The notes beneath the pieces were generated by a model, which saw only the letters and a program-made list of their open reading frames with translations, was not told the origin of the DNA and did no database searches. Positions 3,001-24,864 of a DNA stretch of 27,502 nt are shown piece by piece (within the stretch, counting starts at the first letter, position 1; every line of letters starts with the position of its first letter). The position numbers and the translations under genes were made by a program. The DNA comes from an uncultured virus (IMG/VR IMGVR_UViG_3300034629_000093) (taxonomy: Duplodnaviria > Heunggongvirae > Uroviricota > Caudoviricetes): the IMG/VR virus record IMGVR_UViG_3300034629_000093. One strand, given 5' to 3'.

Positions 3001-5015
3001 TCAAGAACAGGCTTGTTCTTAAACTCTGAGATAACCCAGCCGTCCTGTACTTTACTTTCTATCAACTCCTTTCTAGTAATGAGTGAGCCATCACGCTCTA
3101 CATTTTTACTAAGTACATTTATAACTCGTTGCTTATTCTTTGGGTCCAAAGTTTCTTCAAAACCGCTAAGATCCACCAAAGGCTCACTTTCATTAGTAGG
3201 AGAGCTATTCGATTGTCGAGCATCACGCTGTCTGTTCAGTTTTACTTCTTCAATAGCATCCTCTAAAGTATCATGTATAGAATCACCAAAACCCTGCCCA
3301 GTTTTTCGAGAACGATTAGGAACTAAAAACTGCTCCTTTCCATTAATTACTTGTGTATAAATTTGATAATCCCCATCCTCCGAAACAGGGATCTCCGCTC
3401 CCTCATCATTCCTTATTCCTTGTTCAATATTCGATATTCTTTCTCCCTCCTCAACTTGTTCATTGGCCGTTGGCTGTTCAATGTTGGCTGTTGAATTCTG
3501 TACTCCTTTATTCTCAACTCCTACATTCTCCGCCCTCCCCAACTCAGATTCAATCCTCGTAATATCATCAAGCGCAAGGTCAATATCCTTCACAACGGAT
3601 TCATTATCCAAAAACTGATCCTTAATACCCATCAGCCGTGAAAACTCCGCATTCAACTGCGCCTTCTGCGTCTCAACATCCGCCTCCGGATCAAACGAAA
3701 ACCCAATCTCCGGCACAACCTCGCCCTCAATATATCCACGCTTTGCATTTTGAATTCTTAATTCTTCATTCTTAATTCTTAATTCCTCACCCTTCTCATC
3801 CAAAAAATCCTGAATCTTTTGCAACTCCGCTTCCTGCTCCGGGGATAGTTGCAAATCAGAATTAGCCCGCATATTAGCAACTCCCAAACCCAGCGCATTC
3901 AAAGTCAAACCAACAGCAAACCCGGTAGTCCCGCCCTCAACCAAGCCCTCATACAAGCTCTTAGTCTCATCATACGTCTGGCCGGCAACAATATTACTAG
4001 GTAGCTGCTGAAGAATAGTCTCCTGAAAAGCCTCCTCAACACCACCCGCAAGTGCTTCCGCACCCATCTTCGCATACTTATTAGTCAGTTTTCGGCTCAA
4101 TATCCCTGTAAACTTACCGCCGCTAACCTTATCCAGTCTACGCATCATTTTACCCAAAGGTATAGCCTCCGTAGCACCCAAAGGTAAATTCAGAAGAAAG
4201 GCATTAAAAGCCTCATCATCCGAAGCGCCAGCGTCCTTAGCATTAACAAACTCATTAGCCGCAATAGTGCTACTACCAAAAATAGTACTACTCGCTATTG
4301 CCGGAACTTTAACAGCCTTACTTGCAACACCACCAACGCCAAAACTAGCCGCGCTTCCAAGTCCTTCCGGGAACTTTCGTGCCAAAAACTCATCCTGGTA
4401 CTTCTTATTCTGTGGAAACAGCACATCAATATCTTTACTCAGATCCTCCGCAAATCTATACACCGGAGAATTCTCCACAGCCATCTCATCCGTCAATCCA
4501 AGTGCATTACTAACCTTAGTACCGCCAACCGCAAAACTACGAAGAATATCCACGCTCAACGGGCGTACAAAACCCTCACTAAAACGATTGGCCGCCTCCA
4601 TAACCCGTCCCTGATTACTCTCACCTCCGGCAGCCTTCAAAGCATCCAAACCCTTACTAAACTTCCCGGCAATACTCATATCACCATCCTTCCCCTCCGC
4701 GGGCGGGGACAAAGGGGAGGGGGCTCCTGAATTCTGAACTTCTAAACTTCTATCTCCTAAACTTCTATCTCCTACATTCTCACCGCCACCATCCCCAAAC
4801 AACCCACTAAACCTCTCAAAATCAGGCAAACCCTTAACAGCACCATTATCAGCAAGTCTATCATAAAAAGCCCGCCGTTTTGCAGAATCAGCCATAGCAG
4901 ACTCAAACACATCAAAGCTATCCGGTAAACCCTTAACAGTACCGGCAGAATACAGTCGATCATAAAGCTTCTTAGAACGCTTAACAGTAGGGGTACTATT
5001 TGGATTATTAATCAT
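1..5015 (-). CDS. Giant polyvalent / DNA-ejection (internal virion) protein, 3' end outside window, >=1671 aa; contains a beta-clamp-like domain (1302-1799) and a HExxH metallopeptidase (~170-780)
   Basis: Manual translation from ATG at 5015 (MINNPNSTPTVKRSKKLYDRL...) is stop-free to the window edge (...DLNLALIEERE). Gly/Ala-rich helical N-region with GGVEEAFQE; motifs DDLRPALQGV, VATDGYKM, KFPNWKAVVP, VVMP; VLAHEIGHLID at 657-671. Follows the nozzle and two small ejection-type genes. Confidence 0.88.
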   Translation of the reverse strand, partial: MINNPNSTPTVKRSKKLYDRLYSAGTVKGLPDSFDVFESAMADSAKRRAFYDRLADNGAVKGLPDFERFSGLFGDGGGENVGDRSLGDRSLEVQNSGAPSPLSPPAEGKDGDMSIAGKFSKGLDALKAAGGESNQGRVMEAANRFSEGFVRPLSVDILRSFAVGGTKVSNALGLTDEMAVENSPVYRFAEDLSKDIDVLFPQNKKYQDEFLARKFPEGLGSAASFGVGGVASKAVKVPAIASSTIFGSSTIAANEFVNAKDAGASDDEAFNAFLLNLPLGATEAIPLGKMMRRLDKVSGGKFTGILSRKLTNKYAKMGAEALAGGVEEAFQETILQQLPSNIVAGQTYDETKSLYEGLVEGGTTGFAVGLTLNALGLGVANMRANSDLQLSPEQEAELQKIQDFLDEKGEELRIKNEELRIQNAKRGYIEGEVVPEIGFSFDPEADVETQKAQLNAEFSRLMGIKDQFLDNESVVKDIDLALDDITRIESELGRAENVGVENKGVQNSTANIEQPTANEQVEEGERISNIEQGIRNDEGAEIPVSEDGDYQIYTQVINGKEQFLVPNRSRKTGQGFGDSIHDTLEDAIEEVKLNRQRDARQSNSSPTNESEPLVDLSGFEETLDPKNKQRVINVLSKNVERDGSLITRKELIESKVQDGWVISEFKNKPVLEDPETNSFLDTSDLTKTGIDYAEYLIDKNASSEKGSDKVEEGSGSESGTVAPETKGVWDDQKLLNTYKKKYSIEPTAGALDFLKKRTKVVDSDINIENVFRVASNIAKEYPSNKPLPISVFAEAIEYEVMSNKLGLSDWYVKNQLDGKPTSQADRMKELGALDDFDRNFYEKTNELVSKINTSLSKKENPDVLKKVVGYEYDELYKQYAPTLEKSTKKKVGFASLRALEEVYNNLEDQGNKASKSTARKGIEYNFPDVIKVKKPTFVSKSNGFLLKFSNGLEVSATKYKDGSFDLIVGKETTDAGGIEGFNQLSDTIVAKDKRELNSKLTNIYEKYLKSTKSEEVNQKTIPEFLAPYSKSIDKIPLVKDKIDLDITDEIEFTPPLTSKIPALKKWEKDNPISIVVSKDDLRPALQGVYYDTDEGVKVATDGYKMVVTPDSRIKKSKVVNPKTGDMINEKFPNWKAVVPDSDTYIFTADLSNDVIEQIYANERFNRFFKNYKQKDNLFHKITTEPGMEVYLAAENLGRAVRSLKELGSKNLEIRLDAPKKGVIILDKDDNRRFAVVMPASKPNASIYTPLLTNVKMNGASIDSKISQLENFENDWSWNFDKKNLTDAQEKNDEWNIKYYSDKLKNREAEINKEIEELKNFRDNNVPVKKQASPKRSGFADGTTEGFGGEFEGGSNPLNVDRKLAEAKQIEVVDEYGRQREVTLGELENITGLELPELVTFTRELTGSAPSISTRFTSTRGVFYPVGDGKIALKASIFKDTKLASQVLAHEIGHLIDYLPEQTMSRGNILGRLLTLRKYLKTTAEGSASRGEALSTKDRAKLRRMAEKAVIDESGITLQEYINDKDLKASLSDGIKERYQEYVKREIENRGLLDNKALFDELYAHSKAWRPFEEAEVSADFLMYRRSSAELYADALSALLVSPGTLQKNAPTFYAEFFEQLDNKPEVKTQFAELQALLTGGRERLLRLRNETINQSFYSSEDLNLALIEERE
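4688..4782 (+). repeat. GC-rich hairpin element type A plus 7-mer tail, in frame within the giant gene
   Basis: CCTTCCCCTCCGCGGGCGGGGACAAAGGGGAGGGGG followed by CTGAATT/CTAAACTT/CTATCTC/CTACATT units; encodes ENVGDRSLGDRSLEVQNSGAPSPLSPPAEGK. Confidence 0.9.
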
Positions 5016-6130: not shown

Positions 6131-6135
6131 AATTA

Positions 6136-6334
6136 TAACTCCTAAATTCTAAACTCCCAACTACTAAATACTAAATACTAAATACTACCTTCTAACTTCT
6201 AACTTCTAACTCCTACATTCTCAACTCCTACATTCTAACTACTAACTACTAACTCCTACATTCTCAACTCCTACATTCTAACTACTAACTACTAACTCCT
6301 ACATTCTCAACTCCTACATTCTAACTACTAACAC
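6136..6334 (+). repeat. Intergenic 7-mer array with 43-bp higher-order repeat
   Basis: CTAAATA, CTAACTT, CTACATT, CTAACTA units; exact 43-bp unit starting at 6208, 6251 and 6294 (third copy slightly truncated). Confidence 0.95.
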
Positions 6335-6940: not shown

Positions 6941-7095
6941 TTATTAATCTTAAAACTAACACCTAACTACTAACTCCTACCTTCTAACTTCTAACTTCTA
7001 ACTCCTACATTCTACCTACTAACTCCTACCTTCTAACTCCTACATTCTACCTACTAACTCCTACATTCTACCTACTAACTCCTACCTTCTACCTA
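6941..7095 (+). repeat. Intergenic 7-mer array
   Basis: Tandem CTAACTC, CTACATT, CTACCTT, CTACCTA units. Confidence 0.95.
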
Positions 7096-9963
7096 CTAAA
7101 ACCTACTCGCCCCCTCATGCTCAATCGGTCTATAAAACAACCGGGCGGCACTAAGACGGTTACCCGTATTCGGCACAACCTTAAGTCTGATCCTTGGTTG
7201 CAGCCCACGGCGGTACAACTCCACAAACAAACCCTTCATACTCAAAGTAACCTCATCAGTAGTCATGTCGGCGGTAAAAGCCGCACTCCATGCGCCACCA
7301 TCATCAAAACGCGAATCCTGAAGATCTAGGTAAACAGTAACATCCACGCCCTCGCCAATAAGTTCTATAACCTCCATATACAATTGAACAGCCGTGGAGC
7401 TCAGGTAATCCGTAGTAAGCAATCCGGAAACCTCCGCGGTAGCATCACAAACATCATCATCATTATAAGTGCCGGCAATATCCAGTGTAGCAATACGGTG
7501 ATCAAAACCCCCATACAACTGGTTACCCAAATGCGAGATAGAATTAAAACTCCACATATCAGCAGCGTCATACTTCATAAGGTAGCTCAGTAAACCCTCC
7601 TCACGGCTGGTAGAAAGAGAATCACTCAATACCAGCACTTCGTTATTAGCCCCAAGCAACCACAGTTCATGTTCACGGGCATGGTAAGCAGCATCCTTAA
7701 AAGGAGAATCAAAAAACGAATATCTCGTACTATCAATAATACGCTCAACATCCTTACCCCGCCAAACATACAAACCATCATGGCTTTGAAACACCACGCG
7801 ATCTCCCCACAAAGCACAAGAGAAAGGAGAGAGTAAAGGCAAGCTCTCCGCAACCGGCTCCTCATTCACATCAAACGCTCCGGAACTCAAGTCAGCGCCC
7901 AAATAAACAATAACAGGCTCCTTATTAGTCAATAAATAGATAAGGTATCGTAATCGGTCGCCACGCTGGTTATCTATCATGTCAGCAAAAAGCCGCTCAA
8001 TACGCTCAACATTACTAATAGGCTTTTGGGAAGTAATATCTATCATCTGTCCGGGCGTCGCCAAAGCAACATAATTAGCAAGATCCAATACCTCTTCGTC
8101 CGTATTAGTATCCGGTAAAGCATCCAATGTATAATCAGCGGGGACCGTAGAAATAACAATTTCCTTCCCGAAAAACTCCGGGTCCTTCGGGGTAATTTTC
8201 TTAATCAGATAATAATCAGTACCCGAAGAAGTATCCTTTAAATACAGATACACAGCCAAAATCAAACTACTTAAAGCCGTTTGCTTATAAATATTTTCAG
8301 TTGATTTCAACTCCAGTTCATAATCAGTATCACTAAAAGTATTATCGCTGTACTCATACACAATACTTAAATGCTTATCCGCGTCTACGGTGCCCGAAGT
8401 TTCAATTCTGTAATTTACGTTAGGATCAGGGACAGGTTTATTCAGTTCATAACCACCAAACAAAATACTTCCCTTCACGCCACTAACATGATGGGGTTTA
8501 ATACTACTAGCCGGTAATATAGTAGGTCGTCCGGCAGTATGTGGTACAAAAGCAGAAATATGATCGATCAGTTCCTCATCAGGGGTATAATCATCAATAG
8601 TAAAATCCGTAACAGAAAAATCCCGAGCAAAATAAAAACTACCGTTAGGGTAATCAGGGCGGGTGCCATAACAATCATTACTTTTCAATTGCCATCGGGT
8701 ACTAAATAAATAACCCTTAACAGCATTATCCGGCACAAGGTTATTAGGTGCAGTATTGTATATATGCCGTAGCTGAACGCCCTTTCTATACGTTCTTATA
8801 TCTTGAATTGGATCAACACCAACATCTTCAAAAATACTGGAAGCAGGGGTGCTGATTTCAATAGGTACACTAGGATGTGTAAAACTGCCATCGTTAAGCT
8901 CATAAACCACACAATAAGCACGGTATAAGGTTGGTTCGTTAAAATCAGAATTCACGGTAATATCTGCCGTTCCAACCGAATACTTACCGCTGCTCTCAAG
9001 AAAAGCATTTATATCAACACCAGAAGGCACTACACTATAATAATATTCAATATTCACGTCGCTGCTCATGGGTGGCCATGGGCTTTGAAACTTTAATTTA
9101 CCATCCGTATCTAAGGTGGTAATTTTTGCGATCTGCGGTTGAAAATTAATCACTCCATTCACCAATGGGGTCAATGGGGAAGGGGTTGACAAAACAGGAT
9201 CGTCACCGGTGCCATCTATAGTATAAGGGAGTTCACTCTCTAAGATTAATATCTGATCATTTTTATACTCAACACCGCCAATAGTTAAATACTTCTGTCC
9301 TCCATACTCATATTTATAGATCCCTTTCGCTAACGTGTCAGAGCTTGCAAAAATAAAAGTACCCCAACTAAAATCCGATAAATACACCAGTACACTTTTA
9401 TTCTCTCCAAAACCCCAAATATTCTTATCCGTAAAATCATTCTCCGTAATAAAGTCCACATCATAAAGGGGTTTAGCGGAAGCACTATACCACTCAAAAA
9501 TATCCTTCGTCTTCAGGTCAATATACCAGGCTTGCCCGGCACCGGTATCAAACAAATACAAAAACCGTCCAATAACCACATGCTGCAACTTAGTATCATT
9601 CTTAAAAGCAACATCAACACCATAAGTAGTGGTAGTCAGGGTCGTTAAATTATCTAAATACAAGCGGGTATCAGTATGGCGGATCATGTAATTATAAGTA
9701 ACCCCCTCATAACTACTGCTAAAAGCCGCTAATGTAATAATATCACCCTGCGCCTCAGATCCAAGAATTCCGGTAGTACCGCCACGTACTTGAATATCCT
9801 GTCGTATTCCATCACCCTTATAGCGTACATTCTCCAAATCCTTCCAAAGCCGAATTGTACGCTGGCCTTCAGGATTCGCATCCCCCAAACCAAACTCCAT
9901 AACCTTAGAAGGCCGTTCCGCAACAGCTCCAATCCTACCAGCTATGTCACCAATTCTACTCAC
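7096..9963 (-). CDS. Probable tail nozzle / packaged-DNA stabilization protein (P22 gp10/T7 gp12-like role), 955 aa
   Basis: Beta-rich; N-terminal DLENVR motif, propeller-like C-terminal blades (VVFQSHDGLYVWRG, AAYHAREHELWL); sits after capsid and adaptor. Confidence 0.7.
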   Translation of the reverse strand: MSRIGDIAGRIGAVAERPSKVMEFGLGDANPEGQRTIRLWKDLENVRYKGDGIRQDIQVRGGTTGILGSEAQGDIITLAAFSSSYEGVTYNYMIRHTDTRLYLDNLTTLTTTTYGVDVAFKNDTKLQHVVIGRFLYLFDTGAGQAWYIDLKTKDIFEWYSASAKPLYDVDFITENDFTDKNIWGFGENKSVLVYLSDFSWGTFIFASSDTLAKGIYKYEYGGQKYLTIGGVEYKNDQILILESELPYTIDGTGDDPVLSTPSPLTPLVNGVINFQPQIAKITTLDTDGKLKFQSPWPPMSSDVNIEYYYSVVPSGVDINAFLESSGKYSVGTADITVNSDFNEPTLYRAYCVVYELNDGSFTHPSVPIEISTPASSIFEDVGVDPIQDIRTYRKGVQLRHIYNTAPNNLVPDNAVKGYLFSTRWQLKSNDCYGTRPDYPNGSFYFARDFSVTDFTIDDYTPDEELIDHISAFVPHTAGRPTILPASSIKPHHVSGVKGSILFGGYELNKPVPDPNVNYRIETSGTVDADKHLSIVYEYSDNTFSDTDYELELKSTENIYKQTALSSLILAVYLYLKDTSSGTDYYLIKKITPKDPEFFGKEIVISTVPADYTLDALPDTNTDEEVLDLANYVALATPGQMIDITSQKPISNVERIERLFADMIDNQRGDRLRYLIYLLTNKEPVIVYLGADLSSGAFDVNEEPVAESLPLLSPFSCALWGDRVVFQSHDGLYVWRGKDVERIIDSTRYSFFDSPFKDAAYHAREHELWLLGANNEVLVLSDSLSTSREEGLLSYLMKYDAADMWSFNSISHLGNQLYGGFDHRIATLDIAGTYNDDDVCDATAEVSGLLTTDYLSSTAVQLYMEVIELIGEGVDVTVYLDLQDSRFDDGGAWSAAFTADMTTDEVTLSMKGLFVELYRRGLQPRIRLKVVPNTGNRLSAARLFYRPIEHEGASRF

Positions 9964-9967
9964 AAAT

Positions 9968-10060
9968 TTCTAACTCCTACATTCTACATTCTACCTTCTA
10001 CATTCTAACTCCTACATTCTAACTCCTACATTCTAACTCCTACCTTCTACCTTCTCACAT
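9968..10060 (+). repeat. Intergenic 7-mer array
   Basis: Tandem CTAACTC, CTACATT, CTACCTT units. Confidence 0.95.
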
Positions 10061-10864
10061 CTAATCCAAAACATTCCAAACCACTGCACCATTACCATTC
10101 TCCAATCCCTCCATACCATTCAGTAAATCCTGCGGGGAGGGCGGTTGAATTTTCGTAGGTAACAAATACGCCAGTGCAGTTTTCAGTAACAACTCCTCCA
10201 TAATCAGCGGGGTATCCAAAGTATGCTCAGCAAGCTCAGTAGTCTCAGCATCACTACGCTTACCCACGTTATACTCATTCACATCGATCACACCCGGAAC
10301 AGTACTAGCCTCAAAAACCAAAAAAGAATCCGAAGCCACAGCCTTACCCAAATGCAGAATAAAATTACTCGCATCAAACCAATAGGTTTCCTCCGCGGTT
10401 TGGGCGCTAAACCCTGTTTGAGTAGTTTCCTTATAACAATTCGGAGTTATATCCTCCGTTTTATTCTCTGTAAACAATGCGGTAGAATACACATATATCT
10501 TCCCGTTAATACCGGTCACATTATGCCAAGGCTCCTTATACAAAAAAGCCTCAATACCGGAAGGGTGCACACTCGCAAGTGTCGAAGCCAGTACAGAATC
10601 AACCGGTTCGGCAGCATAAACATCATGCAATCTTAAAGGTAATATCCGTAAACCGGCAGGCACAAAAATAGAAACCGTTTTCAGTTTTTTACGAAAAGAA
10701 GATAGATGCCTGTCAGCCTTATTAACAGCTCTCAATAAATGCTTATAAGCCTTTCGGCGTTGGTAAAGCGGGCCACTGATCTCATTTTCTTCAAACAAAA
10801 TCTCCAAACGATCCTCAAGCTCCTCAACCGCGTCCAGCAACATTATATCTAAAGAATAATCCAT
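10061..10864 (-). CDS. Putative head-tail adaptor/ring protein (267 aa)
   Basis: Helical N-terminus, beta middle and C-terminal P..MEELLLKTALAYL helix as in podovirus adaptors; lies between capsid and nozzle. Confidence 0.5.
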   Translation of the reverse strand: MDYSLDIMLLDAVEELEDRLEILFEENEISGPLYQRRKAYKHLLRAVNKADRHLSSFRKKLKTVSIFVPAGLRILPLRLHDVYAAEPVDSVLASTLASVHPSGIEAFLYKEPWHNVTGINGKIYVYSTALFTENKTEDITPNCYKETTQTGFSAQTAEETYWFDASNFILHLGKAVASDSFLVFEASTVPGVIDVNEYNVGKRSDAETTELAEHTLDTPLIMEELLLKTALAYLLPTKIQPPSPQDLLNGMEGLENGNGAVVWNVLD

Positions 10865-10894: not shown

Positions 10895-10980
10895 CTAAAA
10901 CTAACTCCTACATTCTACCTTCTAACTTCTAACTTCTACCTTCTACATTCTACCTACTAACTACTAACTACTACCTCCTA
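10895..10980 (+). repeat. Intergenic 7-mer array
   Basis: Tandem CTAACTC, CTACATT, CTACCTT, CTAACTT, CTAACTA units. Confidence 0.93.
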
Positions 10981-11045: not shown

Positions 11046-12620
11046 CTATACCTGTTCACCAAGAACAAATACTTCAAAACTTTGAGGTACCGAATCCAGC
11101 GTACCATCAATGTTATACTTTTGAACGCGGCTCTGCCCAAACAAGCAAGTTTTACTTACACCTGCCTCATTACCGTAATCATCTTCCTTCTTATACTTAA
11201 GGTCTTGATGTTTACCGGTAGCACGTACAAGAGCACCCGCTCCAAACACAAACACACGCTTCAACACTTGTGTATTTGCAACGCCGCTAAAAGCAGTTGC
11301 TGCGGCAGAAGCTGCCGTAAACTGGCGTACCCCTGGGGTAATACTCAGTTTTTCAACTCCATTCACGGTAGCCACATTGTAAGTCATTACAGTGGTATCC
11401 GTATTTGCGGTAGCAATAGCATTAAAGCTATTTTTCACGGTAAAGTAATCCTCTTCCGCTTCATCAAGCTTAATACTGTCACGTATGATCAGGTTCTTAT
11501 AAACCACATCATCCGCATGTAATAATGGGTTATCTTTAAATGCACCTTGGTAAGCGCCATTCATTAGGTCTTTATAATCCTGATCATCTTCCAACAGATC
11601 CTTCACACCACCCGGTACATACACAAGAAACATCTTTCTAAGCTTATCCTTGTTATCCCTAATCAGGCAAGGAATCATAGAACTGTTCAAGCACTGGCGG
11701 TTGATTTGTCTCAACAGAGACAAGGTAGGCTTATCGTCCGCTTGTACCGCGCTAATAGCCGTCGTAATAGAACTTTCATACGTCTTTTGGGTAGCATTAT
11801 AGGTAACCTTATTCATTTTACCGTCGCTCCAAACATACAAACGTGGATGCTCTTCAGGGCCTTTACGCACACCACCCGCAACATCAGCAATCGGCACATC
11901 GCCATTACTGGCACCGGCTCTCTTGCTGGCATTAATAAAGTGATGGATATCATAACCCGCGCAAGCTGCAAACCATAATCCGGTATCTTTACGCTGTGCT
12001 TCAGCATCCGTAAGGTTATCAACAAAACCCTTCATTAATTTACCGGCGGTCATGTTAGCAGTATATTGCTCACCCTCAATCACATCAGATTCACCAACAA
12101 CCAAGCTATACTTATCAATAGGTACTCTGTATGTATGGCGCTTCATTTCTTCCTCAGCACCAACATGCTTTTGGCCTTCATATCTACCCGTATTAAGTAT
12201 ATTAGAAGTACCGGTAATCAGTGGGTTCTTAATAACCACATCCATATACTTACCACCCGCGCTCAAGTCACTAGAGAACTTAATAGGTGCAGCAGCTACA
12301 CGTTGCGATTCTTGAGGTCCATCATCACCCCAGCTCATACCAATTTCACTCTCAGTAAACTCGGTCTTTTGCTCACCCTGTTTAATAGCCATCTGGCTCC
12401 ACTTATGGAATGTTTCCGGGTCAGAGGCAATCTTTGCCAACCAACTCGCCATAGCCATAGAAGATCCGAGCGTACCACCGCCCACAAGGTAAATCATTGT
12501 GCCCTCGCCAACGGCATTCGCCATTAAGCTGTAAAAATCAGGCATACTCTGTGCGGCCGTAGCCACACCAAACAAAAACAGCGCTAAAAGCTGTAAAAAA
12601 GGAATATATAATCGTTTCAT
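11046..12620 (-). CDS. Major capsid protein, N4-gp56/DUF4043 family, with hydrophobic N-terminal extension (524 aa)
   Basis: Motifs DLSAGGKYMDVVIKNPL..EGQKHVGAEEEM...VPIDKY and RVFVFGAGALVRATG...KEDDYGNEAGVS fit the family pattern; own leader and terminator. Confidence 0.85.
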   Translation of the reverse strand: MKRLYIPFLQLLALFLFGVATAAQSMPDFYSLMANAVGEGTMIYLVGGGTLGSSMAMASWLAKIASDPETFHKWSQMAIKQGEQKTEFTESEIGMSWGDDGPQESQRVAAAPIKFSSDLSAGGKYMDVVIKNPLITGTSNILNTGRYEGQKHVGAEEEMKRHTYRVPIDKYSLVVGESDVIEGEQYTANMTAGKLMKGFVDNLTDAEAQRKDTGLWFAACAGYDIHHFINASKRAGASNGDVPIADVAGGVRKGPEEHPRLYVWSDGKMNKVTYNATQKTYESSITTAISAVQADDKPTLSLLRQINRQCLNSSMIPCLIRDNKDKLRKMFLVYVPGGVKDLLEDDQDYKDLMNGAYQGAFKDNPLLHADDVVYKNLIIRDSIKLDEAEEDYFTVKNSFNAIATANTDTTVMTYNVATVNGVEKLSITPGVRQFTAASAAATAFSGVANTQVLKRVFVFGAGALVRATGKHQDLKYKKEDDYGNEAGVSKTCLFGQSRVQKYNIDGTLDSVPQSFEVFVLGEQV

Positions 12621-12644
12621 TTTCCTGTGTATTTAAAATTGTTA

Positions 12645-12768
12645 TTGAATTCTTGAGCATCCGGTAGGTCATACCATCGCCTATCGACATTGAATTCAGT
12701 CACAAGTGGGTCACACACAGGCAGGGTCACTGCCCTGTAACTGGTAAGCATCAAACGTCACTTTGATT
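12645..12768 (-). ncRNA. Candidate structured 5' leader RNA of the capsid gene with repeated UGACC-loop hairpins
   Basis: GGCAG-UGACC-CUGCC (12720-12734), GUG-UGACC-CAC (12706-12716), GGUA-UGACC-UACC (12663-12675), AUCAAA-GUGACG-UUUGAU (12750-12767); closing stem CAGUUACAG/UUGUGACUG. Confidence 0.65.
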
Positions 12769-12769
12769 A

Positions 12770-12804
12770 ATTGCAATTTGTATAATAAAATTACAAAATG
12801 CAAT
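12770..12804. promoter_or_regulatory. AT-rich inverted repeat, candidate promoter/operator for the capsid gene
   Basis: ATTGCAATTTGTA-N9-TACAAAATGCAAT (13-bp arms, 1 mismatch) between an upstream terminator and the structured leader. Confidence 0.5.
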
Positions 12805-12825
12805 ACTCACCCAAAAAAACATTCC

Positions 12826-13041
12826 CTCCTAAACTACTACCTTCTACCTCCTACATTCTAACCTTCTACCTCCTCAACTCCTACATTCTCACCTTCTACA
12901 TTCTACATTCTCACCCAATAAAAAAAAAGCCCCACATATAAATGCAAGGCTCATATCCTTTCCCCCTTCGGAGGGGGTGCCCGAAGGGCGGGGGAGGTCC
13001 TAACAGCTAAATACTAAATACTCTGTACTAAATACTAACTA
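12826..13041 (+). repeat. 7-mer arrays plus type B hairpin (12957-12997), surrounding a terminator
   Basis: CCTTTCCCCCTTCGGAGGGGGTGCCCGAAGGGCGGGGGAGG; CTACATT/CTACCTT units to the left and CTAAATA units to the right. Confidence 0.9.
12920..12951 (-). terminator. Intrinsic terminator after the 13042-13821 gene
   Basis: Minus strand AGCCTTGCAT-TTAT-ATGTGGGGCT followed by a T run. Confidence 0.8.
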
Positions 13042-13821
13042 CTAAAATCTAGTCGCAATCCCAAACTTATCAGTAAGCTCGGCACCAAGCGCTTCAGCGC
13101 CATCCTTACCCTTCGGTTTCTTCTCAACCTCAAAATCAGCAAGCACCGATTCCTCAGTATCCGGATCAATCAAGTCATAATAAGCACCACCACGCTTCCA
13201 CTTAAAAACCTTCTCATTATCCTTCCCCTCCGCGGGAGGGGACAAAGGGGAGGGTTCTTCCACCTTCTGAACTTCTGGCTCCTGAACTTCTGAATCCTCT
13301 TCACTCTGCACTTCGTCACTCTGCAACTCTGTACTCTGTTCCTCCTCAAGTTCATCATCCGGTATTCCTTGTTCAATATTCGATATTCCTTCCTCCTCCT
13401 GAACTCCTGAACTCCTACATTCTACATTCTCATCTTCTACATTCTCATCTTCTACATCCTCACCTTCTACATTCTCAACTCCTACATTCTCCTCTTCTCC
13501 GCCATAAACCTTCGCTCTTCCGCTCTCGCTCAAAGCCAGGTTCGTAAGCTTCTCGGCAGGGTTCGCGTCCTCATCCACAAACTCCACATCCTCCGGTTCC
13601 AAACGCGGGCAGCTCTTAATCGAGCCATGCGTTCTAAAAACCTCCACATGCACATAACGCGTTTCCACTTCGCCCGCCCGTCCGGGGATAGGGGTGGTGA
13701 AAGTTTTCAATCCCGTTTCAGGATCAACAACAGGGTTCACCGGCGTAATGCCATTCTTAAGTAAACGGCCAAGGCCGTCAATTAAAATATTCTTATTTCC
13801 GTCAACTTGTTCGTAATTCAT
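13042..13821 (-). CDS. Hypothetical protein (259 aa) with a repeat-derived acidic linker
   Basis: ORF with globular-looking N- and C-terminal parts separated by ~90 aa encoded by the repeat families (13221-13495). Confidence 0.75.
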   Translation of the reverse strand: MNYEQVDGNKNILIDGLGRLLKNGITPVNPVVDPETGLKTFTTPIPGRAGEVETRYVHVEVFRTHGSIKSCPRLEPEDVEFVDEDANPAEKLTNLALSESGRAKVYGGEEENVGVENVEGEDVEDENVEDENVECRSSGVQEEEGISNIEQGIPDDELEEEQSTELQSDEVQSEEDSEVQEPEVQKVEEPSPLSPPAEGKDNEKVFKWKRGGAYYDLIDPDTEESVLADFEVEKKPKGKDGAEALGAELTDKFGIATRF

Positions 13822-13880
13822 AATTCAATGGTTTTATTCTGATTGTTGGTTAAAATTCTTACCCTCCCCGGTAGGGTTTT

Positions 13881-13985
13881 CCTATCCCCCTTCGGAGGGG
13901 GTGCCCATCGGGCGGGGGAGGTCTCCTAAACTCCTACATTCTACCTTCTACATTCTACCTTCTACATTCTAGCTACTAACTACTA
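13881..13985 (+). repeat. Type B hairpin (13881-13921) plus 7-mer array
   Basis: CCTATCCCCCTTCGGAGGGGGTGCCCATCGGGCGGGGGAGG then CTACATT/CTACCTT units. Confidence 0.9.
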
Positions 13986-15639: not shown

Positions 15640-15786
15640 CGTTGGTTAATTGGTTGTTGGTTAAAACCCTTCCCCTCCACAGGAGGGGATAAAGGGGAGG
15701 GTAACCCCTAATTACTGGTTGTTGGTTTTTGGTTTTTCTCACATCTTAAATCTAACTACTAACTACTACCTTCTAACTACTAAATT
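15640..15786 (+). repeat. Type A hairpin (15668-15701) flanked by TTGTTGG-type and CTAACTA-type 7-mers
   Basis: CCTTCCCCTCCACAGGAGGGGATAAAGGGGAGGG with GTTGGTT units on both sides. Confidence 0.88.
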
Positions 15787-16320
15787 CTACCCCACCAAAA
15801 CCCAATCCTCCGCAAGCATATCCGTTTGGGAAGCAAGCCATCCGGTAAGAACTTTTTTATCCGCCGTCCACATTCGGATAGAGCCATAAGCATCAAAAGT
15901 ATCCTTCCCAGTTTCCGTTTCAATCACTGTGCGCAAAGCGGGGTCATTTATTACCTTGGTAGGTATTCCATCATCAGCAGGAAGCAGGAATAAGAACATC
16001 CCTTTTCCATTCCATCCTTCCCGAGCAACACGCTTACCCATCTTCAACGCCTCAATCGCCTGCCCAAAAGTCAATCCGTTCACTTCACGGTAAGCCCTTT
16101 CAAAAACATCCTTAGGGCTCCAGCTAATGTAATGTTCGTGGGCGGGGTGCAACTGGTGGGAAGGGCTATCCAAATACTCCACTAAATATCCATCATCATT
16201 AGGGTTTTCGTCAGCCGGTATCGTCCATCCTCTATAATCATTGTATTCACCCCTTGTCATGGGAGTGGCTTTTATTTCTTTCGTACCTAAATAATTCTTC
16301 ATAATATTGGTTTCCTTCAT
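15787..16320 (-). CDS. DUF2829 (Tad2-like) domain protein fused to an N-terminal YxGTK...SWSPKxVFE domain (177 aa)
   Basis: C-terminal LTFGQAIEALKMGKRVAREGWNGKGMFL...GWLASQTDMLAEDW is the DUF2829 signature; start may be the second Met (MKNYLGTK). Confidence 0.85.
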   Translation of the reverse strand: MKETNIMKNYLGTKEIKATPMTRGEYNDYRGWTIPADENPNDDGYLVEYLDSPSHQLHPAHEHYISWSPKDVFERAYREVNGLTFGQAIEALKMGKRVAREGWNGKGMFLFLLPADDGIPTKVINDPALRTVIETETGKDTFDAYGSIRMWTADKKVLTGWLASQTDMLAEDWVLVG

Positions 16321-16783: not shown

Positions 16784-18946
16784 CTACGGGCGCAGAACCC
16801 CATCAAGCGCATTCGCATCGCCATTCATAAACTGCACCATAGCATTCATCATCGCCGCCGTCGCCTTATCCTGATCACTCTCCGCCTTCTGCTGTAAACG
16901 GAACGCATTCTGTTCCAGCTCCTTCAGCTTCAAGCCATACTCACGATCCTTCTCCTCCTGCAGCAATTGCAGATTAGCCCGCTCATTCTGCTGAGCCGCC
17001 TGCATCATCTGTTCATCAATAGCCTGCATTTGATCGATCCACTCACGGAACATACCGCCATACACCGTTTGGTCCATCATGCGGAGCATAACCACGCCCT
17101 TCGGCGATTGCGTATAAGGGAACAACGAAGCCATAGTTTCCTGAATCCAGAAACGCTGTTCCGTAGGGTTCACCGGTATGATCGAAGTCGTAGAAATTTG
17201 GGTATCAAACTGTAGGTTCTTCAAACCATTTTTCACAGCATAGGTATACAAACTGCGTTCCCGTGTAATCGGGTCCATTTGCTCATACTGCCCCAAAGGC
17301 TCATTAAAAGCAACTTGGCTATACTCCTTAGTAATAGGATCCTGCACAGTAACCTGAAACGGTTTATCCCCTATAAACGAAACCAAGTTACTATAAAACT
17401 TCTCGCCCAGCCATTTAACAGCAGCCTCCAGGTTACCCACAATAGGGCTCATCGTAGTCTCGTTGCCGTAATTCTGCAAAGCCTCTTGGCGTCCGCTATA
17501 CGCTTGGCGGTTACTCACCATTTCGCCCTGTCGGTCAACATGGTAGATCATATCCTGTTCCAGATTGTCATACATACTAGGGAACTGCCCAACCGGAGCC
17601 TCATAGATCAAGTTCGCCATCGGTAAATTCTTTAAGTTACTCGGCAAAGCCTTCGGGTCAATTTCAATAACCGTGCCCTCCTTCTTTGTTTCCCTAACCT
17701 GATCCTCCGTAAGCACCCCTTTATAAGTAAACTTCGTATTCTTAAACGTACTCTTGAAATACTTAAACTTGCCATTAAACGCCAAGTTAAACGCCCACTC
17801 CGGGCTATGCATATCCTTAAAAGCACCGATTCCATACGCATGCAATTTACTCGGTCGTCGGAACCACATTGTAAGCGGGCACATACCATGGTCATACTCA
17901 TCAATAGCAGCCTCCACAATACCGACATGTTCCAGCCTAACCACATGCACCCAAGCGCGGCGTTCAATAACCTGTTCACGCTCAGCCATCACGCCGCCAC
18001 CAACATCCACTTGGTATCGTTCCACATAACGGACAGGCATCGGTATCCAAGTATGTTTAATCGTCGTCATGTTATGATCATTTCTGATCTGATTCAAAGT
18101 AGGGTTACTCCGTAACTGTGTATCCGATATGCCCGGTTTAATTTTATCCTTAAACTTAGGATATCTCATCATAGCATCCGTAACACTAATACTCTTCATC
18201 CATGTGATAATAGTATGGCTGTCATGCTCAAAATCCATACTCTCCTCGCCCCGCGCTCGGCGGTCGCGGATCAATTCAAACGTCGGGATATACTCTATCT
18301 TTTGGCGGATCAACGTATGATCAAACCGTTCATACTCCTCCCAGGTAAGCGGTTGGTTTTGGCGGGCACGGTCACGCAAAAAACGGTGGTTTCTAACCTT
18401 AGGAGAACGCTCCTTACCAACAAACAAAATACCCGAACCAAAATCATGGCCGTCACTAATAAAATTCTTACGGTTGATCTCATAATTAAGATCATTCAAA
18501 ATACTATTCCGGCTCACGTTAAGCGCTTTAACCGTTTCAGCATCCTGTTCCGGATTCCGGGCAACCGCCTCAAAATTCAACGGCACTTTAAACAAATATC
18601 CCTTACTCTTTTCGGCGTTATTACGCGCCAAACCGATATACGCACGGCTGTCAGAACGCTTCACCTTCGTATCCGAATAATAATTTCTCCCGCTATCCGC
18701 AGTATTATAACCATCATTCTCGCGCATACTAATAGCCTCCAATGCCCGATCCTTATACATCCACAAGCTCTCCATCACGGCAAGGTTCTGGTTATCCTCC
18801 TCCATTAAAAACTGCTCAATCGTTTCAGCAGTAGCCTGCACGGTATTCTCATAATCCGGAACCATATAACGCACATCAATCCCACTCATGTCATACAACA
18901 TCCGCACCCAAAACCGAAGATCATTATGCACAAAACCCTTACTCAT
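16784..18946 (-). CDS. Portal protein, P22/N4-like, with C-terminal Gln-rich barrel helix (720 aa)
   Basis: Size, DGHDFGSGILFV, YDHGMCPLTMW, AYGIGAFKDMHSPEWAFN, YSGRQEAL and C-terminal coiled coil fit P22-type portals; location upstream of scaffold and capsid. Confidence 0.85.
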   Translation of the reverse strand: MSKGFVHNDLRFWVRMLYDMSGIDVRYMVPDYENTVQATAETIEQFLMEEDNQNLAVMESLWMYKDRALEAISMRENDGYNTADSGRNYYSDTKVKRSDSRAYIGLARNNAEKSKGYLFKVPLNFEAVARNPEQDAETVKALNVSRNSILNDLNYEINRKNFISDGHDFGSGILFVGKERSPKVRNHRFLRDRARQNQPLTWEEYERFDHTLIRQKIEYIPTFELIRDRRARGEESMDFEHDSHTIITWMKSISVTDAMMRYPKFKDKIKPGISDTQLRSNPTLNQIRNDHNMTTIKHTWIPMPVRYVERYQVDVGGGVMAEREQVIERRAWVHVVRLEHVGIVEAAIDEYDHGMCPLTMWFRRPSKLHAYGIGAFKDMHSPEWAFNLAFNGKFKYFKSTFKNTKFTYKGVLTEDQVRETKKEGTVIEIDPKALPSNLKNLPMANLIYEAPVGQFPSMYDNLEQDMIYHVDRQGEMVSNRQAYSGRQEALQNYGNETTMSPIVGNLEAAVKWLGEKFYSNLVSFIGDKPFQVTVQDPITKEYSQVAFNEPLGQYEQMDPITRERSLYTYAVKNGLKNLQFDTQISTTSIIPVNPTEQRFWIQETMASLFPYTQSPKGVVMLRMMDQTVYGGMFREWIDQMQAIDEQMMQAAQQNERANLQLLQEEKDREYGLKLKELEQNAFRLQQKAESDQDKATAAMMNAMVQFMNGDANALDGVLRP

Positions 18947-19734: not shown

Positions 19735-19925
19735 TAATTCTACATTCTTAATTGAAACATTCTTAATTCTTAAATACTCAATACTACCATCTAACTACTA
19801 ACTACTACCTTCTAACTACTACCTTCTAACTACTACCTTCTAACTACTACCTTCTAACTACTAACTACTAACTACTAACTACTACATTCTAACTTCTAAC
19901 CTTCTACCTCCTCAACTCCTACCTT
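19735..19925 (+). repeat. Intergenic 7-mer array running into the 3' end of the adaptor gene
   Basis: (CTAACTA CTACCTT) 14-mer tandem copies then (CTAACTA)n; last codons EKVGVEEVEG-stop are repeat-like. Confidence 0.95.
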
Positions 19926-20576
19926 CTCACTACTATAAAGCTCCGCAATCAACCCACTAATCTGGCTCTTACCCGTATTCCCGGTCAGCACAGCCTCAAC
20001 ATGCATCATAGCCAAAGCCACCACTTCCTCCTCAAAAGGAGAGGGGAGAGGGAAATCCAAAGTCGAATACAGATCCGCACCCGCGCCCGTAGCCACCGGC
20101 TTCGTAGGCAAAGGGATATAATTCAGCTCCAGTTTAGAAGCGCCATGCAATAAAAAATTCTTAATCGAAAAATCCGTAGCCACCAACCGGTTACCATACT
20201 GATTCTTCTTAGCAATCATTCTAAAAAACGAACTCACGCTACTAAGTTCACGATCCGTAACAATAGTCTCATCATCCAGCAACAGATAAACAATACCCAT
20301 ATCCGGGCGAGAGCGGAACAAGTCAGCCGGCAACGCCGCTGAATAATGGGTGATATCAGAACCCGTTGCACCCGTAGGTTTAGCAACGAGAGTAAGAGAG
20401 CTCGTCTTATAAATAGAATCCAAAACCGAAGCCTTAGCATCCCGCGCAACCTTAATAGTAGCAGCGTAAATAAACTGAAGTTGCTCCGCCAGCTTCGTAG
20501 ACGAACCCGCATCCGGCCAAGATCGCTGTTCGCGAATGCGCTCAAATAAAAGGGTATGTATATCAGAATATTTCAT
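19896..20576 (-). CDS. Putative head-tail adaptor/ring protein (226 aa)
   Basis: N-terminal helices, YSAALPADL, LELNYIPLPTKP and DFPLPSPFEEEVVALA resemble podovirus adaptor/ring proteins. Confidence 0.6.
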   Translation of the reverse strand: MKYSDIHTLLFERIREQRSWPDAGSSTKLAEQLQFIYAATIKVARDAKASVLDSIYKTSSLTLVAKPTGATGSDITHYSAALPADLFRSRPDMGIVYLLLDDETIVTDRELSSVSSFFRMIAKKNQYGNRLVATDFSIKNFLLHGASKLELNYIPLPTKPVATGAGADLYSTLDFPLPSPFEEEVVALAMMHVEAVLTGNTGKSQISGLIAELYSSEKVGVEEVEG

Positions 20577-23464
20577 AAAGACCGTACAAACCCCTGAATT
20601 CTAATTTCAGCACCCGTATTATTAGTAACTTTAATTTTAGCATATTGCCCGTGGATAGCTACTCTTCCAATACAATTTCCTGCGGTTACTGTTAATTGAT
20701 CCGTTACATCCTGTGCTTGCTCTGCTCCTAGTTTTAAAGGATAAATAACAGATACAGAAATTCCTGAGCCGGTATCTAAATCACCAAATGAATTGTTTCT
20801 CTGGAAACGGATATCTAGAAATAATCCTTGGCACTTTATATAATAAGTCTCATAATTTGCAGTAGCTGCTATTGATGTATACCTCTCAAATACATGTAGA
20901 TCTAAACCTTTTAACCTTTCCGCTACTTCAAGGAAGTTTGGCGGTACAAATTCAGCTATATAGTTATAACCAATTGTATTAGAGTCTGAGGGTTGTACAC
21001 ACCCTTGTATTAATAATCTTCCGGTATGTGTTTTAATAAAGTGAGGTTGTACTGGATAAAGCAGGCTATTAAACTCCGTTTCACTCCAGTTTAAACCATC
21101 AATCGAATAAGCAAAAAAGCCAGAGCTATCCGAAGCGCTGTCTTGGGCATTTCTGCCAACAATACAAAAATACCCGCCTATATCTTGAACGTAATGCCCG
21201 CCAGCAACATGTATGTTTGCTGAATGTACAGTATAACCAGTATCAAACCAAGGATGTTCTCCGGTAATTATCTGAGCGTCCTTACTTTCAGGCTCTGGTC
21301 TGCAAATCATAAAGTGTTGAGCACTATCGTCCGCTTGATTATGTTTCCAGTAGTAAGCAGATTCGTTACAAACAAGATCAGGGAATGTATTACCGACAGC
21401 CCAATTCTCCCCGTTATCCTGTGAATAAAGTATTGCAGGATGATTGTCCGAATCTCCTGTATCTCCACCCCAATAAGTCATAATCAAATTATCCTTACCT
21501 CTGCGGTATATAAACATCCCAACATTACGTTCTGTAAATGGTTTTGGTATTGCGCTCGAAGTATTATAATTAGATATATCCATTGGGTCTTTTTGACCAT
21601 CACAGTATCTAACTGTAACATTTGAAGTTGAATAATCCGCATTTTGAATGCTGTACATCATGAAGTATCTGTCAGAAGCAAAATCATAGCTAAAGAAAAT
21701 CGCCCTGTAATCGTAATCAACGGCAGCGTCCACCATTAAAACAGGCACGCCCCACGATCTGCCAAAGTCTTCTGATTTAACCATGTACAACTGAGCACCT
21801 GAAGCTGTTCCATGTGTGTCTCCACTCCTATAAAGCAGATATATGTTACCATCAGGGCCCATTTCTGCGCAACTAAAACCAATCATAGATTTATTTCCGC
21901 TGTAATCATAGAACCCACCAGTCTTCGATATATTTACAATCTTACCTAAACCTCCGGGAGCCGGGTTTGCACCTTCAAACTTCTTGTCAAGCGTCACCGC
22001 TTGTGAACGCTCTGGATCTTGCTTTCCTGCTCTAAACCCAAACTCAGGACGTAGATCTCCATACATTGCAAATAGTTTAGATGCACCAGTATTATTTGTA
22101 ATATTAACCTGAAAATAGCCATGTTCTAAATCTACATCCGCTTTTATCACTCTACCATTTAGAGAAAATAAATGTGTTATATCAACGGTGTCTTCAAGTG
22201 AAGTTGTATAACCATATTTTAATTCAATTTTAATATTTTCTAATCCCGAAGGGGTACTATTTCCTTGTAAGAACAACCTAATACTAGGTCTGTCTGTGCG
22301 GATAGACCTAGATTCAAAGGTTTCAGTGTCCGCTATTGTAGTATTTCTTGGTGCAATTTCAATTTGTGGTGATATATCATTCTTTACCTCTTCTTTGTCT
22401 GGTAGAATAATTTCTTGCAAGCCAATTTGATCACCAAATGAAGATTTTTGTGACCAAATATTATAAGCACAAAAAACAGCTCCCGATTTACTAACTGATA
22501 GTTTCCGAAAACTATCAATAGCGCCACCAATAGTTTCTGCCGGGGTGAAATCGTACCCATTTATGGTTTGAAAAACATATTCGTTCCAACCAAGCGAGGA
22601 TCGGTCTTGTGTAAAAAAAGTTTTAACCCCACCGTGGTCCACATAATCGCAAGAGTTCTTGAGAACAAACGGTAAATTGTAAGCGATCCAATCTGTTTGG
22701 TTTACGCTTGCATGCAATACCCCCTTTGCGTCACTTGTATCAGATTCAACCATTACAAAAATGGTTGAACGAGCGGTGTCTATTCGGGCATTGTCATGGC
22801 AAGCATATACATTACGTGCCTTTCCAGTCCCAGAAAGCTCTACGTGAATTGTCCAGCTATCACCGGCATCTTGGGATCTTAAATATCCAGGGGTGTTATC
22901 ACCACCTGTGCTTTCGTAACCATATACAGGAATAAACAGATACCTGCTCACTTTCTTAATCCCCCCGCCTGTAACATTTTTTAATGTATAAGGTTGTGTA
23001 ACTGTTGAAAGGTTTGGGCTTGTTTCAAACATATCCGCGCTTTTAGCTATAACGATGTCTGAATCTTCAGAATCAATATCACTAACCTTTGTACAAGATA
23101 GAATAAAATTTTGAGCTTCATAGTTATAGTACAAATATGGGTCCTTATATGCATAGTCAACTTCTTCAAATACAACTACTGGGTCGCTCCATGTTTTTCC
23201 ATAGTCATAAGAGTGCATAGCGTAAACCTTAGCGCTTGTATAAGAAGAATCACTAGCAGCAGAAAACACATACAGCAAAACATCCCCCGGTCCAAAAGCA
23301 ATATCGCCTCTGCCTATATAGTCTGAATTTGTCATGCTCAATGCTGCTGCTATTCCAGCTGATTCTGATACATTTTGTACACCCGTTGTTCTAAGTGCCG
23401 AACCTCTTTTTGGTTGTTGCGATTCAAAATTATCTACTCTTCTGCCTTTTCCTTGAATAGTCAT
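20573..23464 (-). CDS. BNR/Asp-box (sialidase-like) tailspike or receptor-binding protein, internally duplicated (963 aa)
   Basis: Asp-boxes SYDYGKTW, SQDAGDSW, SEDFGRSW, SQDNGENW, SIDGLNW; two halves each ending in a (I/V)TNNTGA beta module. Confidence 0.75.
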   Translation of the reverse strand: MTIQGKGRRVDNFESQQPKRGSALRTTGVQNVSESAGIAAALSMTNSDYIGRGDIAFGPGDVLLYVFSAASDSSYTSAKVYAMHSYDYGKTWSDPVVVFEEVDYAYKDPYLYYNYEAQNFILSCTKVSDIDSEDSDIVIAKSADMFETSPNLSTVTQPYTLKNVTGGGIKKVSRYLFIPVYGYESTGGDNTPGYLRSQDAGDSWTIHVELSGTGKARNVYACHDNARIDTARSTIFVMVESDTSDAKGVLHASVNQTDWIAYNLPFVLKNSCDYVDHGGVKTFFTQDRSSLGWNEYVFQTINGYDFTPAETIGGAIDSFRKLSVSKSGAVFCAYNIWSQKSSFGDQIGLQEIILPDKEEVKNDISPQIEIAPRNTTIADTETFESRSIRTDRPSIRLFLQGNSTPSGLENIKIELKYGYTTSLEDTVDITHLFSLNGRVIKADVDLEHGYFQVNITNNTGASKLFAMYGDLRPEFGFRAGKQDPERSQAVTLDKKFEGANPAPGGLGKIVNISKTGGFYDYSGNKSMIGFSCAEMGPDGNIYLLYRSGDTHGTASGAQLYMVKSEDFGRSWGVPVLMVDAAVDYDYRAIFFSYDFASDRYFMMYSIQNADYSTSNVTVRYCDGQKDPMDISNYNTSSAIPKPFTERNVGMFIYRRGKDNLIMTYWGGDTGDSDNHPAILYSQDNGENWAVGNTFPDLVCNESAYYWKHNQADDSAQHFMICRPEPESKDAQIITGEHPWFDTGYTVHSANIHVAGGHYVQDIGGYFCIVGRNAQDSASDSSGFFAYSIDGLNWSETEFNSLLYPVQPHFIKTHTGRLLIQGCVQPSDSNTIGYNYIAEFVPPNFLEVAERLKGLDLHVFERYTSIAATANYETYYIKCQGLFLDIRFQRNNSFGDLDTGSGISVSVIYPLKLGAEQAQDVTDQLTVTAGNCIGRVAIHGQYAKIKVTNNTGAEIRIQGFVRSL

Positions 23465-24680: not shown

Positions 24681-24737
24681 AAAAGAATATTGCTAAATAA
24701 AAATTATTATGCAATATGTAATTTAATTAACAAACAA

Positions 24738-24864
24738 ACTCCTGAATTCTGAATCCTTCCCCTTCGGAGGGGGTGCCCAACGGGCGGGGGAGGCCTACTA
24801 ACTACTAACTACTAAATACTAAATACTAAATACTACCTTCTACATTCTCAACTCCTACCTTCTA
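24738..24864 (+). repeat. Type B hairpin (24755-24793) plus 7-mer array downstream of terL
   Basis: CCTTCCCCTTCGGAGGGGGTGCCCAACGGGCGGGGGAGG then CTAACTA, CTAAATA, CTACCTT, CTACATT units. Confidence 0.92.

Follow-up and report, generated by a model that had tools for sequence, protein, structure and literature searches.

In the operators of the RNA-phage coat protein, T4 gene 32, gene 43 and RegA, and the P22 scaffold, a protein reads a hairpin or pseudoknot at the start site, and its binding covers the start and thereby represses the gene. In the Com-mom system of phage Mu, a leader helix reportedly hides the start of a late gene, and a protein bound to a neighboring hairpin is said to refold the RNA and open the start. 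No other late product of a tailed phage is made in such quantity as the major capsid protein, yet dedicated post-transcriptional control of the capsid gene has rarely been described. PMC10690425 presents cis-regulatory candidate RNAs within 25 nt upstream of phage genes, with five candidates upstream of the major capsid family PHA00201.

Here we describe a leader in front of the major head gene of an uncultured marine phage, in which two mutually exclusive folds are predicted. Judging from the comparison of two divergent leaders, the element is real and conserved, and the structure drawn for it in an initial annotation is right but incomplete.

The capsid locus and its leader

The window, which is the whole stretch of 27,502 nt analyzed here, has a G+C content of 42% and carries, on its minus strand, the late genes of a tailed phage or prophage. 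Runs in which its sequence occurs bear marine or seawater metagenome labels. The gene of the major head protein (11046–12620, minus strand; 524 aa; phrog_334, E 1e-10) starts at an ATG at 12620, as read from the sequence. A profile built from this ORF and its homologues (n = 10) matched 7eel_A, a solved major capsid protein, with an E value of 0.0011, and a search of 5.8 billion proteins found nine capsid homologues with identities of 44–56%, eight of which are encoded on contigs of 1.9–43.7 kb. The minus strand also carries the genes of the large terminase (24862–26589; PF03237, phrog_979) and the portal (16784–18946; phrog_156), and the ORF of a very acidic 259-aa protein (13042–13821), which occupies the place expected of a scaffold gene and has no family match. 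A look-up of the terminase in the Atlas returned viral clusters only, and no tRNA genes were found in the window. Among the head genes, a 177-aa protein (15787–16320) contains a Tad2-like (Thoeris anti-defence 2) domain (PF11195, E 1.6e-23; phrog_872). A 963-aa protein (20573–23464) shows weak matches to BNR/Asp-box repeats, and a serine recombinase or DNA invertase-like ORF (26786–27502; phrog_125, E 2e-17) runs off the end of the window. The N-terminus of the capsid protein (residues 1–40, 12501–12620) consists of MK and a following hydrophobic, signal-peptide-like segment; the same kind of N-terminus, which is unusual among capsid proteins, is found in the capsid homologue of the relative described below.

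The intergenic regions that precede the late genes contain, almost without exception, heptamer arrays (CTACATT, CTAACTA, and CTACCTT on the plus strand). With periods of 7, 14, and 21, these arrays lie at 6131–6332, 6955–7106, 9977–10064, 10901–10980, 12825–12911, 13007–13046, 13934–13971, 15751–15791, 19791–19935, and 24795–24873. On the coding strand, the arrays are purine- and T-rich, nearly C-free, and reach the start codons, and their copy number varies among the window, the contigs L001–L003 described below, and variant strains. The same repeat family, with a period of 15, occurs at 13415–13498 inside the ORF of the acidic protein, where it encodes ENVE/DVED repeats; its indels differ between strains. 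The initial annotation had described the capsid leader as the longest non-coding stretch free of heptamers; according to Tandem Repeats Finder, another heptamer-free stretch lies at 4775–5013.

An intrinsic terminator was called after the preceding gene (12927–12952, minus strand; terminator scan). In this context, the leader either opens a new transcription unit or sits behind a terminator. Just 3' of the terminators of the preceding gene lies a promoter-like block, TTG-N18-TACAAATT (12775–12803, minus strand). A scan with the sigma-70 consensus did not call this block in the window or in the relative, and within the window TACAAATT does not recur as a promoter word (30 matches with at most one mismatch vs 48 expected). 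TACATATTGCATAATAAT (24681–24720), 40 nt 5' of the ATG at 24680, looks like the promoter-like sequence of the capsid gene, TACAAATTGCAATTAAT, and from this likeness another promoter of that type may be present there. Within the first 15 capsid codons (12578–12594), a weak hairpin with a T-run resembles a terminator and is probably a by-product of Phe/Leu codons.

The leader element spans 12767–12647 on the minus strand, as do all the parts listed here, and 26 nt separate its end from the capsid ATG. The first hairpin, hp0 (12767–12750; ATCAAA-GTGACG-TTTGAT), has a 6-bp stem and a GTGACG loop. It is followed by a three-way junction of 47 nt (12743–12697), in which a closing stem of nine pairs, two of them G-U, is formed by 12743–12735 (CAGTTACAG) and 12705–12697 (TTGTGACTG) and encloses hp1 (12734–12720; GGCAG-TGACC-CTGCC, loop 12729–12725), the linker TGT, and hp2 (12716–12706; GTG-TGACC-CAC, loop 12713–12709). 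Between the junction and the third pentaloop hairpin, hp3 (12675–12663; GGTA-TGACC-TACC, loop 12671–12667), is a conserved unpaired block, AATGTCGATAGGC (12679–12691). An extra T-G pair extends hp3 to 12662–12676. Two GAATTC sites are located at 12697–12692 and 12652–12647, and the MFE structure includes a helix of TGAATTC (12698–12692) with GAATTCA (12652–12646) that encloses hp3. In the window, all three pentaloops are UGACC. Every element named in the initial annotation is thus present on the minus strand; that annotation had also proposed that the two GAAUUC sites pair with each other and that the element ends about 25 nt before the ATG of a capsid gene.

Within the window alone, the cluster of TGACC hairpins is a marginal case, barely beyond chance. 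TGACC as such is not enriched (29 matches vs 36.4 ± 6.3 expected). When a cluster was defined as three hairpins with stems of at least three pairs and identical 5-nt loops within 70 nt, 18 clusters were found on the minus strand, 17 of which fall in the heptamer tandem arrays, the TGACC cluster being the sole other; dinucleotide shuffling of the whole strand gave at least one such cluster in 19 of 300 trials (p about 0.06). Folding energies of the window leader are similarly unexceptional: its MFE structure, which lacks the junction, has a z-score of −1.50 and was equaled by 18 of 200 shuffles, and the antisense strand folds as well as the sense strand (−41.5 vs −39.1 kcal/mol). The junction segment alone is not unusually stable either in the window (z = −1.32) or in the relative (z = −1.55). 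The TGACC cluster is set apart from chance by the homologous leader, in which it recurs.

Conservation and covariation in a divergent relative

A single metagenome scan yielded three leaders identical to that of the window (contigs L001–L003), which differ from it only in the heptamer copy number and further upstream, and one divergent leader, L004, on a 2386-nt metagenome contig that encodes a capsid protein with 47% identity. L004 is the one independent relative compared. No relatives were found with the capsid protein and the capsid alignment among viral contigs, with the capsid alignment among genome contigs, or with the portal protein among viral contigs, and tblastn and blastn searches gave no match in the phage record collection. 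As for the hairpins, a pattern of hp2 and hp3 had no matches in viral contigs or genome contigs, and a pattern of hp1 and hp2 had none in viral contigs. A hairpin pattern, GGGCAGT...CCTGCCTG, matched at least 119 stretches of viral contigs, but 0 of 119 encode a capsid relative (tblastn), and these were set aside as chance matches.

The MAFFT alignment placed the 47-nt junction of the window on positions 404–450 of L004, also 47 nt, and hp3 on positions 474–486, both without gaps. The L004 hairpins are ACAG-AGAUC-CUGU (hp1), GUG-AGAUC-CAC (hp2), and GGUA-CGAUC-UACC (hp3). The UGACC loops, which the initial annotation had expected in homologous leaders, are thus not kept; the loops of L004 are AGAUC, AGAUC, and CGAUC, and the consensus across both leaders is NGAYC, position 4 being C in each of the three loops of the window and U in each of those of L004. 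Successive loops are 16 and 42 nt apart in the window, and 16 and 44 nt apart in L004.

On this alignment, 87% of the cells pair, compared with 35–44% when the partners are slid. Twenty of the 27 pairs are kept in L004, and six pairs are changed on both sides, compared with 0–2 for slid partners. Four of the six double changes are in the closing stem, all among its five outer pairs (C-G to A-U, A-U to G-C, U-A to C-G, and U-G to A-U), and one pair of hp1 is changed on both sides. All four pairs of hp3 are identical in both leaders; being invariant, the stems of hp2 and hp3 are uninformative on covariation either way. RNAalifold, with the two leaders as its sole input, recovered the closing stem, hp1, hp2, and hp3. 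Together with the four compensatory pairs of the closing stem, this result supports a conserved and folded element ahead of the capsid gene, with the architecture drawn in the initial annotation.

The hp0 hairpin of L004 (369–385; GGCAG/CTGCC with the loop TTGACGC) has a wholly different stem, and a UGACG loop core is common to both leaders. A stringent local alignment pairs hp1 of the window with hp0 of L004 through their common stem GGCAG/CUGCC (score 26 vs 17.4 ± 2.3, reached in 5 of 1000 shuffles), and the homology of individual hairpins is therefore not unique. Hairpins with NGAYC loops number three in each leader, eight elsewhere on the 27.5-kb minus strand, and one elsewhere in L004. 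Three or more of them occurred in 1 of 20,000 shuffles of the window leader and in 4 of 20,000 shuffles of the L004 leader, figures that are optimistic because the motif was generalized after both leaders had been seen.

The unpaired block aligns with positions 458–470 of L004, where AA.GTCGA.A.GC is retained (MAFFT). The UGACG core of the hp0 loop is complementary to UGUCG (12689–12685) in this block, and UUGACG of L004 is likewise complementary to CGUCGA (459–464). The columns of this contact are conserved, with one one-sided change and zero covariation, and this complementarity makes the block a possible partner of the hp0 loop. The sequence of the GAATTC helix is not kept in L004, where GTTGCCTT/GAGGCGAC encloses the same domain. 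The TTG-N18-TACAAATT block recurs at 320–348 of L004, and a terminator is found at 161–183, likewise after the preceding gene; at both loci, a promoter-like block lies 5' of the leader and terminators lie before the block.

Closer variation was compared in contigs of four runs over 11046–13900. In a variant strain (X13/X20), at least 26 substitutions are listed in the 1575-nt capsid gene, 23 of which are at third codon positions, and among the rows listed (33 other rows apart) no substitution falls between 12553 and 12918. A stretch of 170 nt would be expected to show about seven changes at the third-position rate. The same contigs show changes in the copy number of the heptamer array upstream. 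Among the listed substitutions of this strain, the pattern counts in favor of purifying selection on the leader.

A predicted start-proximal helix and the proposed two-state reading

The initial annotation missed a helix, P1, which was found in both leaders: the segment from hp1 to hp2 is complementary to 9–16 nt just 5' of the AUG. In the window, the 5' strand of P1 (CCTGTGTGT, 12713–12721, minus strand) comprises the 3' end of hp1, the linker, the 5' stem of hp2, and one loop base, and the 3' strand (ATACACAGG, 12624–12632, minus strand) stops 3 nt before the capsid ATG. The MFE structure of the window leader pairs CCUGUGUGU (12721–12713) with AUACACAGG (12632–12624). In L004, P1 is a perfect 16-bp helix of 419–434 with 530–545, which is stacked on further helices and stops 5 nt before the AUG. 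Relative to the start codon, P1 is predicted to reach from −4 to −12 in the window and from −6 to −21 in L004. Its 5' strand is the homologous segment in both leaders; the linkers are UGU in the window and UAAU in L004, a difference that is mirrored in the 3' strands. For the 28 nt at the start, the most stable duplex was compared with those of shuffled upstream leaders (1000 each). In the window, its energy is −15.6 kcal/mol vs −9.55 ± 2.15 kcal/mol for the shuffles, 14 of which were as stable; in L004, it is −26.4 kcal/mol vs −14.4 ± 2.4 kcal/mol, and one shuffle was as stable. The MFE of the whole L004 leader has a z-score of −4.19, matched by none of 200 shuffles.

P1 and the junction are mutually exclusive, since nucleotides 12721–12713 are common to both. 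In the predicted ensembles of both leaders, the probability of P1 is 0.99 and that of the junction is about 0, and the energy penalty for enforcing the junction is 7.6 kcal/mol (window) and 15.6 kcal/mol (L004). The three-way junction of the initial annotation is conserved, but it is the less stable of two exclusive folds, and for the full leader the other fold is predicted at equilibrium. When successive 5' fragments were folded as nascent transcripts, the junction was the MFE structure at 80 nt (window) and 110 nt (L004), and it was displaced only once the start-proximal strand of P1 was added. Between −20 and +6, the predicted mean unpaired probability is 0.43 in the window and 0.40 in L004; with the junction enforced, it becomes 0.59 and 0.52, respectively. 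In the P1-containing fold, hereafter fold B, the AUG itself is predicted to be unpaired, and for this reason repression by fold B is an assumption.

These results led us to consider, with a probability of roughly 0.4 and with one independent relative to draw on, that the sequence is a two-state translational leader whose repeated loops dock a putative factor. It would be a cis-acting RNA of about 155 nt, extending from the promoter-like block to the AUG of the major head gene. Fold A, composed of hp0, the 47-nt junction with its two pentaloop hairpins, and the third pentaloop hairpin, would form first during transcription and display three equivalent NGAYC loops. Once the whole leader exists, fold B would take over: P1 would dissolve the junction and bury the ribosome landing site over 9 nt in the window and 16 nt in the relative, ending 3–5 nt before the AUG. 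The balance of folds A and B would then set the translation of the capsid gene. A multivalent factor, most likely a phage or host protein, could lock fold A by occupying the loops and keep the start region open, and when the factor is absent the leader would relax to the closed fold B. The linker (and, in L004, loop bases of hp1), which would be unpaired in fold A and belong to the 5' strand of P1, might serve as toeholds for strand invasion, and a factor bound to the loops would hinder this invasion. The concerted C/U difference of the loops between the two lineages hints at a lineage-specific partner. The computed parts of this model are the sequence elements, their energetics as predicted, and the conservation and covariation seen in a single divergent relative; from them we infer transcription as a 5' UTR, the switch, the direction of the switch, and the loop-binding factor. 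The tuning of capsid translation by a cis-acting RNA, as proposed in the initial annotation, is plausible at the level of prediction, because in both lineages the competing helix lies over the sequence immediately 5' of the AUG.

A well-placed Shine-Dalgarno motif is missing from most genes of the window. In hosts that do not use Shine-Dalgarno sequences, initiation is said, in PMC6847099 and PMC7797042, to be tuned by mRNA secondary structure. If the host of this phage is one of these, an anti-start helix would be effective in it.

A more specific version of the two-state reading seems rather unlikely to us. It holds that the leader would be a multivalent loop-reading switch of a new class in uncultured marine phages, in which the junction and the neighboring hairpins show four GAY-containing loops and sense a putative assembly-state protein (free scaffold or head). 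We would give similarly long odds to its corollary that capsid synthesis is coupled to assembly, the sensor blocking strand invasion by the start-proximal complement. GAY is the aspartate codon in the standard code, and in a more radical variant the loops might dock the anticodon loop of tRNA-Asp, which would likewise act by hindering strand invasion.

Rival readings were weighed in the order of a static structure, sites acting at the DNA level, no function, the 44-codon ORF, and a separate small RNA. A static structured 5' UTR, in which fold B functions as an mRNA stabilizer or an RNase III-type processing site and the small hairpins are incidental or transient, would agree with the dominance of fold B in both ensembles, in which P1 has its probability of 0.99, with the perfect 16-bp, stacked P1 of L004, with the advantage of P1 over shuffles in both leaders, and with the open AUG in fold B. 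It is unlikely on balance, since it leaves unexplained both the three equally spaced NGAYC loops and the conservation of the 47-nt junction, in whose closing stem four pairs are compensatory; all of these features are destroyed in fold B.

The 5-mers might instead act in the DNA, as direct repeats for a regulator or as methyltransferase targets that differ by host (GACC here and GATC in L004). The concerted change of the three loops from C to T at position 4 and the location of the 5-mers directly 3' of the promoter-like block would suit such sites, as would the distribution of GATC in L004, which occurs six times vs 9.2 expected, with four of the six in the leader and one in the 1.5-kb capsid gene. 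The sixth is in a terminator hairpin, and GATC, scarce overall, is concentrated in non-coding DNA. DNA-level sites do not, however, predict the covarying inverted arms, the covarying 9-bp closing stem, or the start-proximal complement; the G-U pairs in the closing stem, P1, and hp1 of L004 would be A-C mismatches on the other strand; and TGACC is not special elsewhere in the window. In addition, zero inversion joints were reported near 12621–12721 in the contigs of the four runs. We therefore find action at the DNA level quite unlikely. A related candidate, an invertible DNA segment with the P1 strands as its repeats, was rejected: the repeats match at 8 of 9 positions at the DNA level in the window, the promoter lies outside, and inversion joints were not reported.

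If the element had no function, shared ancestry and chance hairpins in an AT-rich spacer would have to account for it. The marginal significance of the cluster in the window (19 of 300 shuffles), the weak z-scores of the junction, and the number of independent sequences, which is two only, are compatible with this. Against it, neutral DNA should not align at 47% capsid identity, yet the junction is gap-free with compensatory changes, and in the near-strain comparison 23 third-position changes are listed for the gene and, among the rows listed, none for the leader; this reading is accordingly very unlikely. The 44-codon ORF (12617–12751, minus strand), which is open from the ATG at 12751 to a TGA at 12617 that overlaps the capsid ATG (ATGA), could encode a 44-aa peptide translationally coupled to the capsid. 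No start context supports its ATG, and L004 has no equivalent ORF: over the aligned junction the frames differ and stops are present, and hp3 is kept while the encoded residues would differ (GMTYR vs GTIYH). The ORF is probably not a gene, and a coupled peptide is highly improbable. An independent small RNA acting as a sponge or an assembly cofactor, which the initial annotation had allowed for, is a far-fetched reading, for although repeated loops are typical of multivalent decoys and a three-way junction is reminiscent of the phi29 packaging RNA, no terminator lies between the element and the capsid ATG on the minus strand, which leaves a free-standing RNA unsupported, and the window loops show no complementarity to one another or to the sequence nearby.

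Three further ideas on the function of the loops and helices were dropped. Kissing between loops or pairing of a loop with the start would be feasible with the GAUC of L004 but not with the UGACC of the window, a perfect 16-bp helix is too stable for an RNA thermometer, and pairing of the loops with the 3' tail of 16S rRNA would fit better in L004 than in the window.

The two-state reading would be of consequence in several respects. The leader is compact (about 155 nt) and both folds are supported in two lineages, so that reporters and compensatory mutants could test it directly. Binding of the loops to a structural protein of the phage, if it occurs, would amount to a feedback link between head assembly and capsid synthesis in an uncultured marine phage group. 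If the host ignores Shine-Dalgarno sequences, the leader would offer a clean natural case of initiation controlled by structure only. Large catalogues of candidate phage RNAs exist already, and we regard the element as a useful lead rather than a surprise.

Comparison with known systems

No Rfam 15 family matched anywhere in the window at gathering thresholds. With E values up to 10, positions 12560–12860 of the window and 250–620 of L004 gave snoRNA-type and other hits far below threshold, so that the Rfam check assigned neither leader to a family. Literature searches returned no description of this leader element. The hp1 and hp3 strings of both leaders are absent from six supplementary files of PMC10690425, files 1, 2, and 4, which include the alignments, lying outside the set searched.

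Several known classes differ from the element in their defining features. A hammerhead or other three-way-junction ribozyme, which has a conserved catalytic core left unpaired at its junction, is at odds with a junction linker of just 3 nt (window) or 4 nt (L004), and ribozyme families gave no match in either leader even at E up to 10. A T-box, with its specifier loop and conserved antiterminator sequence, is at odds with the lack of a terminator after the element, and there was no T-box match in Rfam. The phi29 packaging RNA also has a three-way junction, but with two loops that are complementary between molecules; UGACC is not self-complementary, and no Rfam family matched. The boxB of lambda nut is a GNRA-like pentaloop that starts with G and lies upstream of the terminators that are overridden, whereas the first loop base here is U, A, or C and the terminators are upstream of the element. 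CsrA-binding RNAs, which the initial annotation had named as a parallel, likewise have several hairpins presenting the same short loop motif. The CsrA targets are GGA loops; the loops here are NGAYC, and GGA is absent from them in both leaders, which argues against a CsrA-type element.

Compared with the phage operators, the loops of this leader are positioned differently, 45–110 nt upstream, and binding to them would more likely activate than repress. To our knowledge, NGAYC matches the loop motif of none of those operators. Start-sequestering leaders provide a closer parallel. A helix over the ribosome-binding region is predicted in both of our leaders (P1), and an exclusive alternative fold that would free the start is predicted as well (the junction). 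Among them, the Com-mom leader of phage Mu is the most similar in logic to the leader proposed here, in that the occlusion of a start is relieved by a protein bound to a hairpin. The two have no sequence relation, and the single binding site of Mu stands against the three repeated pentaloops that the capsid leader would present on and beside a three-way junction.
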